Assembly (NCBI GenBank): GCA_963802675.1
Contig: CAWDJL010000001.1
Span: forward strand, 4,112-68,111
DNA length: 64,000 nucleotides
Origin: an uncultured Acidobacteriota bacterium
GTDB lineage: Bacteria; Acidobacteriota; Vicinamibacteria; Vicinamibacterales; UBA2999
Reading direction: 5' to 3'
Part shown: in pieces, positions 6,241 through 58,000 of the stretch
Numbering within the stretch: position 1 is the stretch's first letter
How the letters are laid out: each line of letters opens with the position of its first letter
The notes under the pieces: generated by a model
The model's input: the letters and a program-made list of their open reading frames with translations, nothing else
What the model was told of the DNA's origin: nothing
Database searches by the model: none
Position numbers and translations under genes: made by a program

Positions 6241-6352
6241 AAGGTTCCAAGGTTCCAGCGTTCCAAGGTTCAGATTTCCTGTCCGTTCGTTCACGCCGTG
6301 AACGTTGAACGTTTGAACCCTGGAACCTTGGAACCTTGGAACCCTGGAACCT
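6241..6352. repeat. Inverted octamer tandem arrays (AAGGTTCC)x4 / (GGAACCTT)x5; long hairpin between convergent genes
   Basis: Read directly; fills the space between the two stop codons. Confidence 0.85.
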
Positions 6353-12474: not shown

Positions 12475-12584
12475 ACTTACAAGTTACAAGTTACAAGTTC
12501 AAAGTTGAGTTCCACAGTTCCCGTACACAACAACGGCGCCCGAGGCGCCGTTGTTTGTAACTCGCAACTTGTAACTTGTAACTA
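12475..12584. repeat. Inverted heptamer arrays (ACAAGTT)n / (AACTTGT)n around a 12-bp hairpin
   Basis: Read directly; abuts the stop codon of the phosphatase gene. Confidence 0.8.
12529..12555. terminator. Intrinsic terminator-like hairpin
   Basis: AACAACGGCGCC-CGA-GGCGCCGTTGTT, perfect 12-bp stem. Confidence 0.6.
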
Positions 12585-13611: not shown

Positions 13612-13645
13612 CCCTGTGCCCTGCGCCCTATGCCCTGTGCCCTAC
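13612..13645. repeat. Heptamer tandem array (CCCTRYG), about 5 units
   Basis: ccctgtg ccctgcg ccctatg ccctgtg ccctac, overlapping the rhomboid stop codon. Confidence 0.7.
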
Positions 13646-15058: not shown

Positions 15059-15484
15059 ATGCTCAAGGAATTCCGCGATTTCATCAACCGTGGAAACGTA
15101 TTGGACCTGGCAGTGGCCGTCGTGATGGGTGTGGCCTTCGGTCGAATCGTGACCAACGTCGTGGAAGGCGTTCTGACACCGCCGTTGGGCATGGTGATGG
15201 GTGGCATCGACTTCTCGAGTCTGTTCTTGATTCTCGACAGCACCAAGGGAACGCCAGCGTCGCTGGCGCAGGCCAAGCAATTGGGGGTGCCGGTCATTGC
15301 CTATGGCGCGTTCATCAACGAAGTCATCAACTTTCTGATCGTTGCTTTCGCGGTGTTCCTCCTGGTGAAACAGGCAAATCGTTTCAAAGCTCCTTCGGCC
15401 GCGGCGACCAAAGCCTGTCCGAAGTGCCTGTCGAAGATTCCGCTGGGCGCCACCCGCTGCGCCTCCTGCTGCTCCGATCTGTGA
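15059..15484 (+). CDS. mscL: Large-conductance mechanosensitive channel with C-terminal Cys cluster
   Basis: MLKEFRDFINRGNVLDLAVAVVMG, YGAFINEVINFLIVAF; CPKC...CASC tail. Confidence 0.95.
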   Translation: MLKEFRDFINRGNVLDLAVAVVMGVAFGRIVTNVVEGVLTPPLGMVMGGIDFSSLFLILDSTKGTPASLAQAKQLGVPVIAYGAFINEVINFLIVAFAVFLLVKQANRFKAPSAAATKACPKCLSKIPLGATRCASCCSDL

Positions 15485-15544
15485 TCAGTGATCAGTGATC
15501 AGGTGATCAGGGATCAGGGATCAGGGATCAGGGATTAGGGATCG
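15481..15544. repeat. Heptamer array (GTGATCA)x4 (GGGATCA)x4-5
   Basis: Runs from the mscL stop to the four-helix-bundle stop. Confidence 0.9.
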
Positions 15545-15936
15545 AGGCTGGTCGGTGAAGTTCGCTCTTCGGCGAGACGCTGCTCGAGTGATGTTGCGAG
15601 TCCGTTCAGCATGCGTCCGACAGCAGACAGTCTCTGGAGGCTGCGCTCGACTCGAGCAGGCGACGCGTAACCGAGGCGTTGGCTAAGTTCGAGCTGGGTG
15701 AACAATTCGCCCTCAGAACCAAGAGCGATATCGATGTGATTGAGAAACACAGGGGTCGTGCGTCGGCTGGCACCTTCTGCGATATTCGATGGGATTGAGA
15801 TCGCGGTCCGGCGGGTCTGCGCGCTCAGCGTAAACCGCTCGTCCCGGGGGAAGTCGTCGGTCAGCTGATAGACGTTGACTACGAGGTCCATCGCGTGTTG
15901 CCAGACATGAAGTTCTCTGAAGTTGGTAATTGGCAT
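15535..15936 (-). CDS. Four helix bundle protein (23S rRNA-IVP / TIGR02436-like)
   Basis: FRELHVWQHAM, FPRDERFTLSAQTRRTAISIPSNIAEG, IALGSEGELFTQL; ATG at 15936. Confidence 0.93.
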   Translation of the reverse strand: MPITNFRELHVWQHAMDLVVNVYQLTDDFPRDERFTLSAQTRRTAISIPSNIAEGASRRTTPVFLNHIDIALGSEGELFTQLELSQRLGYASPARVERSLQRLSAVGRMLNGLATSLEQRLAEERTSPTSLDP

Positions 15937-16068
15937 GAGGCAACGAGCTTCAAGTTTCAGGCCGTCCGATTCCTGGAGCAAATCCGCTGTGGTGCATGCA
16001 GCAAGACCAACTTTTTTCCACTTCCATTGCTTTGAACCAGCTCAATTCCTGCGTACCTCGACTCCCAG

Positions 16069-16157
16069 CCACTGCTCACTACTGACCACCGATCACCGAC
16101 CACTGACCACTGGTTACTGACCCTGATCACTGACCACTGACCACCGATCACTGATTA
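16069..16157. repeat. Heptamer array (YGAYCAC), about 12 units; reverse complement of the 15481 array type
   Basis: tgaccac cgatcac cgaccac tgaccac ... tgatcac tgaccac tgaccac cgatcac; ends at the ATPase stop. Confidence 0.9.
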
Positions 16158-17306
16158 GAACGTTCGCCGGGCCACCCACTCACGGTAGAGAGAGTCGCTC
16201 ACGACATAGCCGCTCTCCCCTTTCAACACCACGTCCTGTCTTGCGAGTGCAGCCAATGCGGACTGGACGCTGGAGGCGCCCGGTAAACGGTAACGCGCCC
16301 GGACATCGGCCGAGAGCAGCTCCCGGCCATGCTCCAGCACCAGGGCGCGCAGGACCGCGCGTTGTGGAAGCGTGAGCCGCTGCCACGACTCCTCGAAGAT
16401 AGTGTTTTGCTCGCCAAGAAGCCGCGACAGCGTGAGATGCAGGTCTTCCAGTCCAGCCGTCCGTCGTCCCCCGGTTCGCACGTCGTCCCAAGTCTCGTGT
16501 GCGAGACGCTGCACGTCGTAGGGGACGTTCCCGGCCAATTCGATGATCGCATGACCCAGGCCAGGCTCGACGACGATGCCGCTCTTCGCAAACCGTGCGT
16601 CGAGGAACCTGGCGAAGGCGTCCGCGTCAATCTTCTCCAGACGCACCACGGGTCCCGCCTTGTAGAACGGCCGTCGCGGCCCGAGCATCCGTTCCATCAA
16701 CGACGGCTCCGAGCCGGCAAACACGTAGCCAACCTGCCGTTGCTCCTGGACCGCTGCACGCAGCGCCTGTTCGACGCTGCCGCCATCGAAGCTGGCAATC
16801 GTCTGAAACTCGTCCAGCGCGATCGCCAGTCGTCGATTGCGGGCGGCAGCAATTCGGCCTGGAAGCGCGAAAACCTCTGCGGCCAGCCGCGCGACCTCGC
16901 GGGAGGTTCGGACATTGGGGAAGGCGAGCGAGAACCTGGCATCGCCGGCGCCGGAGGCGTCGAATCGCAGTTCGGGGGTGATGCCTTGCAGCAGCTCGGT
17001 GGCCCACCGCCGCACGCGGGCCGCCGGCGTATCGGCCGACACGAGCGCGCGTGCGTACGACTCGAGGAACCCGATGTATGAGCTCGAGGCGGCGACCGTC
17101 ACTTCGATCGTGAGGATGCGCTGGCGCGCCAGGCCTCGCATCACGTCGCGGATCAGCGAGGACTTGCCATAACGACGAGGCGAAATCAGAAAGACCTTCT
17201 GCCCGGCGGCCAGGTCGCGACTGAGCCGGTCGCGCTCGCCCTCGCGATCGGCGAAGGCCCCAGCCGTAACGATCTCGCCGTAGACGAAAGGATTCTCCGA
17301 TGTCAT
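16155..17306 (-). CDS. P-loop ATPase (archaeal-ATPase-like) with probable C-terminal winged helix
   Basis: NPFVYG, SPRRYGKSS Walker A, IALDEFQ Walker B; alternative start at 17327. Confidence 0.85.
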   Translation of the reverse strand: MTSENPFVYGEIVTAGAFADREGERDRLSRDLAAGQKVFLISPRRYGKSSLIRDVMRGLARQRILTIEVTVAASSSYIGFLESYARALVSADTPAARVRRWATELLQGITPELRFDASGAGDARFSLAFPNVRTSREVARLAAEVFALPGRIAAARNRRLAIALDEFQTIASFDGGSVEQALRAAVQEQRQVGYVFAGSEPSLMERMLGPRRPFYKAGPVVRLEKIDADAFARFLDARFAKSGIVVEPGLGHAIIELAGNVPYDVQRLAHETWDDVRTGGRRTAGLEDLHLTLSRLLGEQNTIFEESWQRLTLPQRAVLRALVLEHGRELLSADVRARYRLPGASSVQSALAALARQDVVLKGESGYVVSDSLYREWVARRTF

Positions 17307-17345
17307 TACGCTGTTCTCCGTAATCATTACGTAGAATAGCGTAAT
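17305..17345. promoter_or_regulatory. Tandem palindromic operator over the ATPase start
   Basis: Two ATTACG-N8-CGTAAT boxes that together form a 41-bp inverted repeat with 2 mismatches. Confidence 0.55.
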
Positions 17346-17346
17346 C

Positions 17347-17466
17347 GGTCGGTGGCCAGCATCAGTGATCAGTGGCCGGTGATCAGTGGTCAGTGCCCTG
17401 GAGAGTGGTCAGAAGTCCGGACAGGGCGTGGCCCCTGATCACTGATCACTGAACACCGATCACTGG
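17347..17466. repeat. Inverted heptamer arrays (GTGRYCA)n / (TGATCAC)n with no enclosed gene
   Basis: Same unit as the 15481 and 16069 arrays, with a spacer of about 25 nt. Confidence 0.85.
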
Positions 17467-19318: not shown

Positions 19319-19350
19319 CAGTGGCCGGTTGCCAGTGGCCAGTGGCCGGT
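19319..19350. repeat. Heptamer array (CAGTGGC), about 4 units
   Basis: cagtggc cggttgc cagtggc cagtggc cggt, directly after a stop codon. Confidence 0.65.
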
Positions 19351-19377
19351 GAAGACAACGTTGAGCGACAGGTCGTG

Positions 19378-23187: not shown

Positions 23188-23408
23188 GCCACGAAGGGCA
23201 TCTCTAAAAGGGCACGTAGCTTCCGCCTTCAGGCGGAAGATCCACGAAGGACAAACGACAAAAACGTACAGGCCACAGAGACGCAGAGACTCAGAGGAGT
23301 TTTTTCAACGCGACCGGCGACCGGCCACCGGCGTCAGTTCTCAGTTACCAGTTCCCAGTTCAAAGGAAACGCTTCTTGCTTTGAACTGATAACTGGAAAC
23401 TGACCACT
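23188..23408. repeat. Composite repeat region (9-mers, REP at 23216-23239, CGACCGG heptamers, inverted CAGTT arrays)
   Basis: Five repeat types read in about 220 bp between convergent genes. Confidence 0.75.
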
Positions 23409-50375: not shown

Positions 50376-50510
50376 GCCACAGAAACACAGAAGCACCAAA
50401 CAACGATAGCCACGAAGGGCACGAAGTCACGAAGCAGAAGCTAGAAATTCTTCGCGTCTTCGAGCCTTCGTGGCAATCTTTAATCCGTTTTCCGTGTTTC
50501 AGTGATCCGT
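50376..50510. repeat. Nested inverted arrays: outer octamers, inner nonamers (CACGAAGNN)x3 / (CTTCGNG)x3
   Basis: Read directly, between convergent genes. Confidence 0.8.
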
Positions 50511-57875: not shown

Positions 57876-58000
57876 GCCACGAAGGGCACGAAGACACGAA
57901 AAGCATTTGGCTGCTGTTGTTCTTCGTGCCTTCGTGATCTTCGTGGCTAGCGTCTCTGTGCTTCCGCGCTTCCGTGTTTCCGTGCTTCGGTGTTTCCGTG
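57876..58000. repeat. Inverted nonamer arrays (CACGAAGNN)x3 / (CTTCGTG)x3 followed by about 6 YTTCCGTG octamers
   Basis: Read directly, between convergent genes. Confidence 0.85.

Follow-up and report, generated by a model that had tools for sequence, protein, structure and literature searches.

The genome of an uncultured Acidobacteriota bacterium (order Vicinamibacterales; GenBank assembly GCA_963802675.1) carries a small four-helix-bundle gene between the stop codons of mscL and of an AAA-type ATPase gene, and this small gene is enclosed by two heptamer-repeat arrays that are inverted complements of each other. The question raised by this locus is whether the gene and the arrays form a single unit, and if so of which kind, or whether the gene came to lie between repeats with which it has nothing to do. 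The whole stretch of DNA analysed, hereafter the window, consists of 64,000 nucleotides of contig CAWDJL010000001.1. Of the 24 sequencing runs listed, 20 contain part of this stretch, the largest share being 0.36; in four RNA runs the shares are 0.06-0.18.

Anatomy of the mscL-ATPase locus

The features of the locus, with the positions of the window, are as follows.

15059..15484, plus strand: mscL, the left neighbour, outside the cassette (PF01741, 129.9 bits)
15481..15543, plus strand: left heptamer array, three GTGATCA units followed by five GGGATCA units; on the gene's own strand, the 3' arm
15535..15936, minus strand: four-helix-bundle gene (PF05635/TIGR02436), 402 bp, 133 amino acids from ATG
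15937..16080, minus strand: leader of about 145 nt, from the 5' arm to the start codon
16081..16155, plus strand: right heptamer array of ACTGACC, ACCGATC and ACTGATC units; on the gene's own strand (GGTCAGT/GATCGGT), the 5' arm
16155..17327, minus strand: AAA-type ATPase gene, the right neighbour, outside the cassette; kept here in relatives with or without the cassette
17361..17465, unstranded: gene-less hairpin of the same unit family, five ATCAGTG units, a 39-nt loop and 4.4 CTGATCA units

By TRF analysis, the left array was identified as a period-7 repeat (15483-15543, unit GATCAGG, 8.6 copies, 90% matches, score 92) and so was the right array (16081-16155, 10.9 copies, 75% matches, score 66), which scored 106 when taken as a 34-nt period. 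An earlier note, made from the letters of this DNA, had counted about 9 and about 12 units, close to these copy numbers, and its description of the arrays as mutually complementary, bracketing just the gene and its leader and each abutting the stop codon of a neighbour, was confirmed. The left array starts within the mscL stop codon and overlaps the final codons and the stop codon of the four-helix-bundle gene, while the right array terminates at the ATPase stop codon. Nothing other than the PF05635 gene and its leader is located between the two arrays, and this gene, of which the open frame extends up to a TTG at 15981, is the sole ORF with a family match inside the cassette. A scan of the cassette, leader included, for sigma-70-like promoters and terminators found none, and an Rfam search of the window gave no match. 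The gene-less hairpin, with TRF arms at 17361-17395 and 17435-17465, occupies the intergenic region that comes next, on the upstream side of the ATPase gene.

The two arms, tandem repeats of 60-75 nt around a loop of about 540 nt, are complementary in seven inverted pairs of 16-31 nt each (81-89% complementary), which stand in several registers. In the predicted fold of the minus-strand RNA from 15470 to 16170, both arrays pair as a single terminal stem with an MFE of -275.9 kcal/mol (z -4.76; equalled by 0 of 20 shuffles), in agreement with the long slippable stem that had been proposed for the transcript. The Smith-Waterman score between the 300-bp flanks of the gene was 25; of 1468 other small genes in the genome, 0.75% scored at least as high.

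The family assignment made in the earlier note holds: the predicted product scored 113.8 bits against PF05635 (cut-off 33.8) and 106.7 bits against TIGR02436 (cut-off 24), and by sequence it matches PDB 2GSC, an entry with five chains, at an E value of 2e-24. No function is known for this very widespread family except in diversity-generating retroelements (DGRs). One reading would make the gene a remnant or accessory of a DGR, in which an Avd-type protein is partnered with a reverse transcriptase. According to passages of PMC10053308, PF05635 is the commonest family beside DGR reverse transcriptases, and the protein shares with Avd a homologous four-helix-bundle fold family, of which 2GSC and 2RLD have five chains each; weak similarity to Avd models was also detected (NF033474, 44.7 bits; PF22296, 32.5 bits). 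Both scores, however, are below the respective cut-offs (80 and 40), the cassette has one gene only and no template/variable repeats, and a genome-wide search for PF00078 gave no reverse transcriptase above the cut-off, the single 22-bit match being on another contig. The DGR reading is extremely improbable and was rejected on the ground that no reverse transcriptase in the genome passes the cut-off. A defence-system reading was likewise rejected: in PADLOC the gene matched nothing, and the ATPase just mad8, at 16.5 bits.

Insertion, inversion and decay

In four congeneric genomes, mscL and the ATPase gene lie 0-54 bp apart with no four-helix-bundle gene between them. The site is empty in G011, G006 and G002, and the 54-bp gap of G008 holds only a small unrelated array; such empty sites in relatives had been named beforehand as a check. 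The cassette was inserted in one piece between the stop codons of mscL and of the ATPase gene. For a second cassette (C10:26340), the site is unoccupied in G008 and G001, where the flanks are separated by 12 bp and 82 bp, respectively, and occupied in G005 and G007. In a search for ATPase orthologues, 74 of 80 loci had other neighbours; the six with an adjacent mscL, possibly from the same genomes as the first set and thus not counted twice, repeated the empty/occupied pattern.

The empty sites bear on the alternative that the gene is a passive passenger. By this account, heptamer hairpins are general, terminator- or REP-like structures made by slippage, the gene either landed in the loop of an earlier one or entered it by recombination, and the protein is unrelated to the repeats. 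Gene-less hairpins with different units do follow the ATPase stop codon in several relatives, as the account would have it, but at the empty sites there is no hairpin of this cassette's unit, which argues against a loop already in place.

Between G000 and G007, of which the ATPases are 98% identical, the central 414 bp are aligned on the minus strand (86.7%) and the flanks plus/plus (95.9% and 90.6%); the leader is kept in G007, where it is inverted. In one close relative the loop is both inverted and frameshifted, and in G005 the cassette is partly deleted, so that two of the three copies at the mscL-ATPase site are broken, the copy in the window being intact. The arms recombine, because of which the loop flips, and copies decay by frameshift and internal deletion. 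The mobile-cassette reading of the earlier note gains support from the empty sites and, further, from the finding of one inverted and one decayed copy at this site.

The inverted loop in this pair of genomes might also point to an invertible DNA switch, with the arrays flipping the segment and its orientation deciding whether transcription of mscL or of the ATPase gene terminates or reads through (phase variation). The loops of dispersed hairpins of the AACTTGT family are also found in both orientations, and many of these loops share an inner GC-rich palindrome, like copies of one element. A switch is nevertheless highly unlikely, since no invertase or recombinase is located beside the cassette, the immediate neighbours being mscL and the AAA ATPase gene, both flipped copies are broken, and the same design is found in rRNA intervening sequences (IVSs), in which inversion does not serve such a purpose.

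The cassette encodes no enzyme by which it could move; its ends are tandem repeats abutting stop codons, which would mask any target-site duplication, and no transposase, RAYT-type or other, was associated with the loci examined. The paralogues within the genome are mutually only 30-60% identical, and recent transposition is therefore not indicated. The dN/dS ratio of the family gene was 0.04-0.13 in all nine measurable pairs; as judged from these sequence comparisons, the four-helix-bundle protein is under purifying selection. In one genome pair, the four-helix-bundle gene has diverged faster than its neighbours, synonymous divergence being 0.377 as against 0.083 for the ATPase gene and 0.065 for mscL.

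The inverted-array design across the protein family

A total of nine among the ten paralogues in this genome are each enclosed by a long inverted repeat that is itself repetitive, with arms of 24-133 nt and a loop of 420-549 nt. The flank inverted-repeat scores of these nine ranged from 18.5 to 60.5, levels that no more than 1.3% of 1468 small genes attained; the remaining paralogue (C3:212137) is armless, as are four of the 27 loci of relatives. Duplex energies of the whole 350-nt flanks (-185 to -373) were uninformative, and Smith-Waterman scores were used in their place. Among the loci of relatives, 17 of 27 fell below a null fraction of 0.01 and 22 of 27 below 0.02. Across phyla, 40 of 74 loci exceeded the 99th percentile of a permuted-flank null; in the direct-orientation control, 3 of 74 did so. 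Taking relatives and other phyla together, 82 of 113 family loci have the inverted-repeat design, the period being 7 in 68 of these 82, and all 20 arms inspected across phyla consist of tandem 7-8-mers. With rising protein identity, the mean distance between arm units drops from 3.35 to 2.14, a change that none of 2000 shuffles reached. The arm unit and the protein clade are co-inherited, across phyla too. Both the enrichment of inverted tandem repeats around family members and the covariation of repeat unit with protein clade, proposed as checks in the earlier note, were thus found. The occurrence of an identical design around this family in far-apart phyla and genomes, together with the co-inheritance of unit and clade, argues against a passive passenger. 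The general rule, that four-helix-bundle genes are enclosed by inverted heptamer arrays, was not found described in the literature searched.

Among the systems compared, a close likeness is that to the 23S rRNA IVS. As described in passages of PMC4990558, the helix-45 IVS of Coxiella burnetii is an element of about 430 nt with an S23p (PF05635) ORF in its loop, a terminal stem of 28 bp that RNase III cleaves, and three tandem GACAGAT heptamers before the ORF in strain-variable copy number; the ORF is decay-prone and reported as probably not expressed, and ORF-bearing 23S rRNA IVSs of Leptospira and Brucella are cited in the same passages. Common to both is that complementary ends form a predicted stem around an S23p-family ORF, with heptamers. 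The cassette differs, however, in its location between mscL and the ATPase gene, outside any rRNA gene (the 23S gene of this genome, at C10:144206-146671 on another contig, is without an insert of at least 400 nt), in its tandem-repeat arms of 60-75 nt in place of the 28-bp Coxiella stem, and in that the gene is intact and its family under purifying selection, unlike the Coxiella ORF.

We favour, as the probable explanation, a self-contained IVS-type gene cassette between two convergent protein genes, in which excision would take place at the RNA level. The order of its parts is a 5' heptamer array, the leader, the four-helix-bundle gene and a complementary 3' heptamer array. In a transcript entering the cassette, the two arms would fold into a long double-stranded stem, and RNase III, shown in the accounts of IVSs to cleave such elements, would by analogy cut this stem and free the cassette RNA, leaving the host transcript intact; for this last reason, cassettes would be tolerated beside or inside essential transcription units. 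A gene for RNase III is present in the genome (237.8 bits). In just three of five cassettes is the duplex between the arms stronger on the gene's sense strand; G-U pairs therefore provide no indication of an RNA-level constraint, and recombination alone could maintain the complementarity of the arms. More tentatively, a pentameric Avd-like protein might bind tandem arrays of its own type of heptamer, in its own arms as well as in dispersed hairpins. The interpretation given in the earlier note is, as a whole, partly supported.

Dispersed heptamer arrays and a possible role of the protein

The arrays had been taken as special to this gene, and in this respect the earlier note was wrong: a total of 1208 period-7/8 arrays (TRF score at least 30) were identified genome-wide, the majority being gene-less hairpins beside stop codons. 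About 77% of the arrays are intergenic, the hairpin edges are at a median of 6 nt from the 3' end of a gene, and same-unit pairs less than 100 bp apart are inverted in 188 cases and direct in three. Housekeeping genes such as rpsK and those for HU and AhpC are also located between same-family arrays. The distribution of array sizes is truncated on its left side by the TRF threshold, which affects the apparent preference for 4-5 units. The census of family genes, arm units and array families covered 31 relatives and five distant genomes; a filter for 'orphan' arrays served as a list only, and lost the cassette of the window itself because TGATCA is self-complementary.

The large number of arrays, the predominance of inverted pairs, the short distance to the 3' ends of genes and the housekeeping genes between arrays are as expected of a passenger gene, and so is G008, which has 48 matches to the window's unit, with none of its five detected family genes carrying such arms. 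A rule that the window's unit family implies a cognate cassette, which held in G018 and G003, failed in G008 and was rejected. The largest array family, about 150 arrays of AACCTTGG-type octamers, has no cassette. In five of six cassettes tested, the arms are built of a unit that also makes up dispersed heptamer arrays, as a family specific to the lineage, and in most tested genomes the same unit as that of the cassette arms recurs as dozens of gene-less arrays. Such dispersal is not general: in a Ruminococcus genome, all seven unit matches are on the cassette itself, which is against a gene that landed among existing repeats. Likewise, among six family-gene-free genomes sampled, four had zero period-7 arrays per 100 kb and the others 3.5 and 6.1. 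We judge the passenger account unlikely.

Decay of cassettes is not supported as the chief origin of the gene-less hairpins, and this candidate was rejected: loop lengths are bimodal (median 34 nt versus 420-549 nt) with just eight inverted pairs at 100-400 bp, and the loops of array families inspected other than AACTTGT are unrelated to one another, although the copy in G005 is part-deleted.

The abundance of arrays follows that of the gene. Along the branch that gained its cognate cassette, the AGGGCRC family rose from 0-1 to 126-151 matches, and in 16 relatives the density of period-7 arrays was correlated with family-gene count (rho 0.85; period-9 control, -0.06), the 16 genomes being kin and two of the samples coming from contigs picked for family genes (at most about six extra arrays each).

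Between bacterial genes, an excess of 7-nt repeats has long been noted. Heptamer SSRs described in passages of PMC4692102 and PMC4679880, namely GGGAATC in Xanthomonas, GGGGA(C/T)T in Nostoc and TAACTGA in Beggiatoaceae, are mostly intergenic and near the end of the upstream ORF, with 70-75 convergent inverted pairs in Xanthomonas. The arrays of this genome resemble those of Xanthomonas and Nostoc as tandem 7-nt units in intergenic position with a predominance of inverted pairs, but differ in that the units match the arms of four-helix-bundle cassettes. The heptamer-SSR passages of both papers tie the repeats to no protein family, and the terms S23 and helix bundle did not turn up in a search of PMC4679880. 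As dispersed, intergenic inverted repeats in tens to hundreds of copies, the hairpins are also similar to REP/BIME or MITE hairpins, but the arms are tandem arrays with lineage-specific units.

It is possible, albeit doubtful, that the four-helix-bundle proteins bind tandem heptamers in a sequence-specific manner, one unit per paralogue, and that gene-less arrays arise and spread through the action of the protein or of the cassette in which it is carried. The dispersal of five of six arm units, the rise of AGGGCRC, the tracking of gene count by array density and the constraint on the protein point in part to such a role. If it is true, this intergenic excess of 7-nt repeats in bacteria would be a footprint of this orphan family, and the family would propagate repeats, or constitute a post-transcriptional regulon, without the need for a transposase or a reverse transcriptase.

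Among close relatives the site is found empty, occupied, flipped or decayed, which offers natural contrasts, and the components at hand are a small protein, a defined repeat to which it may bind and a stem that may be a substrate of RNase III. The cassette would represent a natural insert that causes no polar damage to the essential transcription units beside or inside which it is located and, if the design is general, the function of the family, the origin of the rRNA IVS and the excess of heptamers would come together in one testable system.

Anatomy of the cassette and its protein

The cassette consists of a 5' heptamer array, a leader, a four-helix-bundle gene of the PF05635/TIGR02436 family (S23p, known from 23S rRNA intervening sequences, IVS) and a complementary 3' array, the two arrays being referred to as arms. 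The following elements were identified in the window.

15059-15484, + strand: mscL (ORF list and profile scans)
15483-15543: GATCAGG array, period 7, 8.6 copies, TRF score 92
15535-15936, - strand: PF05635/TIGR02436 gene (profile scans, 113.8 and 106.7 bits, respectively)
16081-16155: ACTGATC/ACTGACC array, period 7, 10.9 copies, TRF score 66 (106 as a 34-nt period)
16155-17327, - strand: AAA-type ATPase gene (ORF list and profile scans)

The stop codon of mscL contains the start of the left array, and the stop of the ATPase gene is the end of the right array. The arrays pair with each other in multiple registers (7 inverted pairs, 81-89% complementary), and upon folding of the sense RNA of 15470-16170 they form one terminal stem (z -4.76; none of 20 shuffles equalled it). 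The claim of the earlier note, that mutually complementary heptamer arrays surround a four-helix-bundle gene and end at the stops of its neighbours, was thus borne out by sequence, TRF, profile scans and fold. The cassette is real, well delimited and of the IVS type, but located outside rRNA.

The four-helix-bundle protein is constrained, with a dN/dS of 0.04-0.13 in the nine measurable orthologue pairs (one more pair is saturated). Among solved structures it is most similar to 2GSC (E 2e-24, with five chains in the entry), a Xanthomonas protein described as a pentamer of four-helix bundles (Lin et al. 2006, as cited in a passage of PMC4990558). Identity as a component of a diversity-generating retroelement was rejected, because no reverse transcriptase above cut-off was found in the whole genome and the Avd models scored under their cut-offs on the cassette protein. 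PADLOC gave no match for the cassette gene.

Inverted arms around genes of the family

A total of 10 PF05635 matches above cut-off were identified in G000, the genome holding the window. The flank score of each gene was taken as the best local alignment of one 300-bp flank against the reverse complement of the other. Nine of the ten scored 18.5-60.5 and the remaining one (C3:212137) scored 9.5, the null from 1468 other small genes of G000 having a median of 9.5 and a 99th percentile of 20.8. Four of these family genes are without TRF-detected arrays and all the same carry complementary repetitive arms of 44-133 nt. The loops of the G000 cassettes are 420-549 nt long.

The family is present in 23 of 30 related genomes. 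Among the 27 scorable loci of these genomes, the null fraction was below 0.01 in 17 and below 0.02 in 22; flank scores were at background for four loci (L021, L025, L036 and L048), and locus L035 stops at a contig edge. Additional loci of G008 and G018 gave a flank score of at least 20 in 11 out of 14. A cross-phylum set of 80 loci, obtained by motif search with one genome per species, spans Bacteroidota, Planctomycetota, Pseudomonadota, Clostridia, Chloroflexota, candidate phyla and others. Of its 74 loci with both flanks, 40 were above the 99th percentile of the permuted-flank null, compared with 3 in the direct-orientation control. All 20 cross-phylum loci inspected had arms of tandem 7- or 8-mers, the unit differing at every locus. 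When all loci were combined, 82 of 113 showed a flank score of at least 18; the best period of these was 7 in 68 loci, 8 in four and 9 in four, and the upstream arm was G-rich in 62, C-rich in 6 and neutral in 14. The enrichment of inverted tandem repeats around family members, as anticipated from the window's cassette, was therefore detected in G000, in its relatives and across phyla, and the PF05635/TIGR02436 family is tied to inverted arrays.

An extreme cassette is L068 in a Planctomycetota MAG record, in which each arm is a GGTGGAC repeat tract of about 245 nt (about 35 units), with a flank score of 161.5 and a loop of 402 nt.

Occupied and empty mscL-ATPase sites

Orthologues were identified by ATPase protein search in nine congeneric genomes, and the site was compared.

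G011, G006 and G002: mscL and ATPase stops 0-34 bp apart, without family gene or array
G008 (ATPase 93% identical): 54-bp gap, its sole content a small unrelated array
G000: occupied, intact gene
G007 (ATPase 98% identical): occupied by an inverted leader and gene with a frameshift
G005 (ATPase 98% identical): occupied by a remnant of about 46 C-terminal codons in the orientation of G007

Empty sites, which the earlier note had proposed to look for in relatives, are thus seen in the first four genomes; no other occupied site was found among 80 further ATPase loci. In the alignment of G000 with G007, the middle 414 bp match minus-strand (86.7%) and the flanks plus/plus (95.9% and 90.6%). The synonymous difference is 0.377 for the cassette gene versus 0.083 for the ATPase gene and 0.065 for mscL, indicating that the content was exchanged or mutates faster than the flanks. 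The pattern recurs for another cassette, C10:26340: G005 and G007 carry it at the corresponding site, which is cassette-free in G008 (12 bp between the flanks) and G001 (82 bp). The cassette at the mscL-ATPase site is inserted DNA and is subject to inversion, divergence and decay.

In more distant relatives (loci L235, L271 and L273), gene-less hairpins are located just past the stop of the ATPase orthologue, with very unlike units: AAGGCAA/TTCTGCC; GTCGAGAA x9.9 / GACTTCTC x6.6; and AAGTCGGG x8.5. This position seems to gain gene-less hairpins repeatedly.

Dispersed arrays, arm units and a proposed mechanism

The window corresponds to G000:C1:4112-68111. The G000 assembly (6.56 Mb, 63.6% GC) contains 456 period-7 and 258 period-8 arrays with a TRF score of at least 40, of which 550 out of 714 are intergenic by our own crude gene caller (5006 genes). 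At a score of at least 30, the number rises to 1208, and pairs that share a unit and lie under 100 bp from each other are inverted in 188 cases versus direct in 3. Loop length in the gene-less hairpins has a median of 34 nt, their edge lies a median of 6 nt from a gene 3' end, and they show the same arm polarity bias as the cassettes (78 vs 13, 99 neutral). Ordinary genes such as rpsK, HU, AhpC and a cytochrome c are also found between same-family arrays, mostly because both flanks bear their own hairpin. The window contains the following.

17361-17465: gene-less hairpin, unit family of the cassette arms
12477-12583: AACTTGT hairpin with inner palindrome
6241-6351, 13612-13643, 19319-19351, 23310-23361, 50411-50470 and 57922-58000: further intergenic heptamer/octamer arrays of differing units (AAGGTTCC/GAACCCTG, CCCTGTG, CAGTGGC, GCGACCG+CAGTTCC, CACGAAGGG/TCTTCGAG, CTTCGTGAC/GTGCTTCC)

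AACTTGT is the commonest hairpin family (121 arrays), and its loops frequently hold an additional GC-rich inner palindrome of the form CTGCGGCGCC-N4-GGCGCCGCAG (also at G000:C10:20020, C13:161979, C13:234408, C13:588319 and C13:916282), which is found in both orientations relative to the arms and resembles copies of one small loop-flipping element. The octamer families AACCTTGG/AACCCTGG/AAAGTTCC form the largest array group (about 150 arrays, genome-wide, e.g. C13:45216 and C5:513149); no PF05635 gene with arms of this type was found in the G000 assembly. Despite the GC content of the genome, G000:C6:279234-279706 is an A-rich array of 470 nt (AAAAAGAA, 57 copies). At locus L016 (G000:C13:457203-457666), a 70-aa fragment of PD-(D/E)XK_3 (PF13366) lies between inverted CTCAGAGG octamer arrays without a local partner, and may represent a second small gene family in a similar bracket.

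Arm-like sequence of 8 of the 10 G000 cassettes was found at 10-46 other places in G000. Three-unit patterns were then searched in 31 related and five distant genomes, reversed-pattern controls giving 0-8 matches.

Matches of arm-unit patterns
AGGGCRC (C10 cassette arms): G000 150, G005 126, G007 151; other 28 genomes 0-6 (with empty C10 site, G008 1 and G001 0)
AGTAGGC (cassette of G015): G015 278; elsewhere 0-6
GGTTCGT (cassette of G017): G017 87; elsewhere 0-3
GRTCRGT (the window's unit): G000 165, G007 177, G003 133, G018 74, G005 65, G008 48; 25 others 0-7
GTGAAAC (Burkholderiales cassette): own genome 42, another betaproteobacterium 27; three others 0
AGGGRCT (gammaproteobacterial cassette): own genome 211; others 16, 0, 0, 0
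AGTGGTT (Ruminococcus cassette): 7, every one on the cassette itself; elsewhere 0

G003 and G018 each contain one cassette with GRTCRGT-type arms, the protein being 59-63% identical to that of the window; such arms are absent from all five family genes of G008. The density of period-7 arrays per 100 kb, sampled over 56-100 kb per genome, correlated with family gene count among 16 related genomes, which are kin (Spearman 0.85; period-9 control, -0.06). Six family-free genomes gave 0, 0, 0, 0, 3.5 and 6.1 arrays per 100 kb and genomes with 10-15 genes 13-35, the G018 and G023 samples being from contigs picked for their family genes, an excess of no more than about 6 arrays per sample. Over the 68 period-7 loci, the mean rotational unit distance fell from 3.35 at protein identity below 40% to 2.14 at 60% or above (0 of 2000 shuffles matched), and some cross-phylum pairs have common units, as for Chitinophaga and betaproteobacterial loci (68% protein identity, units one base apart). 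The predicted covariation of repeat unit and protein clade thus holds, as co-inheritance of gene and arms; recognition is not implied, because the loci compared share descent. Arm unit and protein clade are associated with each other and with the dispersed arrays.

The cassette is gained, lost, inverted and co-inherited as one unit, and its protein is constrained. In the passages of PMC4990558, the Coxiella IVS carries an S23p ORF inside a 28-bp terminal stem cut mid-stem by RNase III, with three tandem GACAGAT heptamers, strain-variable in number, immediately before the ORF. By analogy, a transcript entering the cassette would pair the arms into a stem, RNase III (its gene is present in G000) would cut this stem, and the host RNA would be spared. 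A reading of the cassette as RNA only is opposed by the lack of strand bias in arm pairing and by a promoter/terminator scan of the cassette, which found neither. More tentatively, the four-helix-bundle protein might bind its own kind of heptamer array. No recombinase is encoded in the cassette, and movement by recombination of the arms with same-unit hairpins is a possibility.

A full-text literature search, with subscription journals outside its range, found no paper stating the family-wide design or a link between the family and dispersed heptamers. Heptamers in a single IVS are mentioned in the Coxiella paper; the passages on heptamer repeats of Xanthomonas/Nostoc (PMC4692102) and Beggiatoaceae (PMC4679880) name no associated protein family, and a term search of the latter gave neither 'S23' nor 'helix bundle'. 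A link between these cassettes and bacterial heptamer repeats is possible, and is testable.
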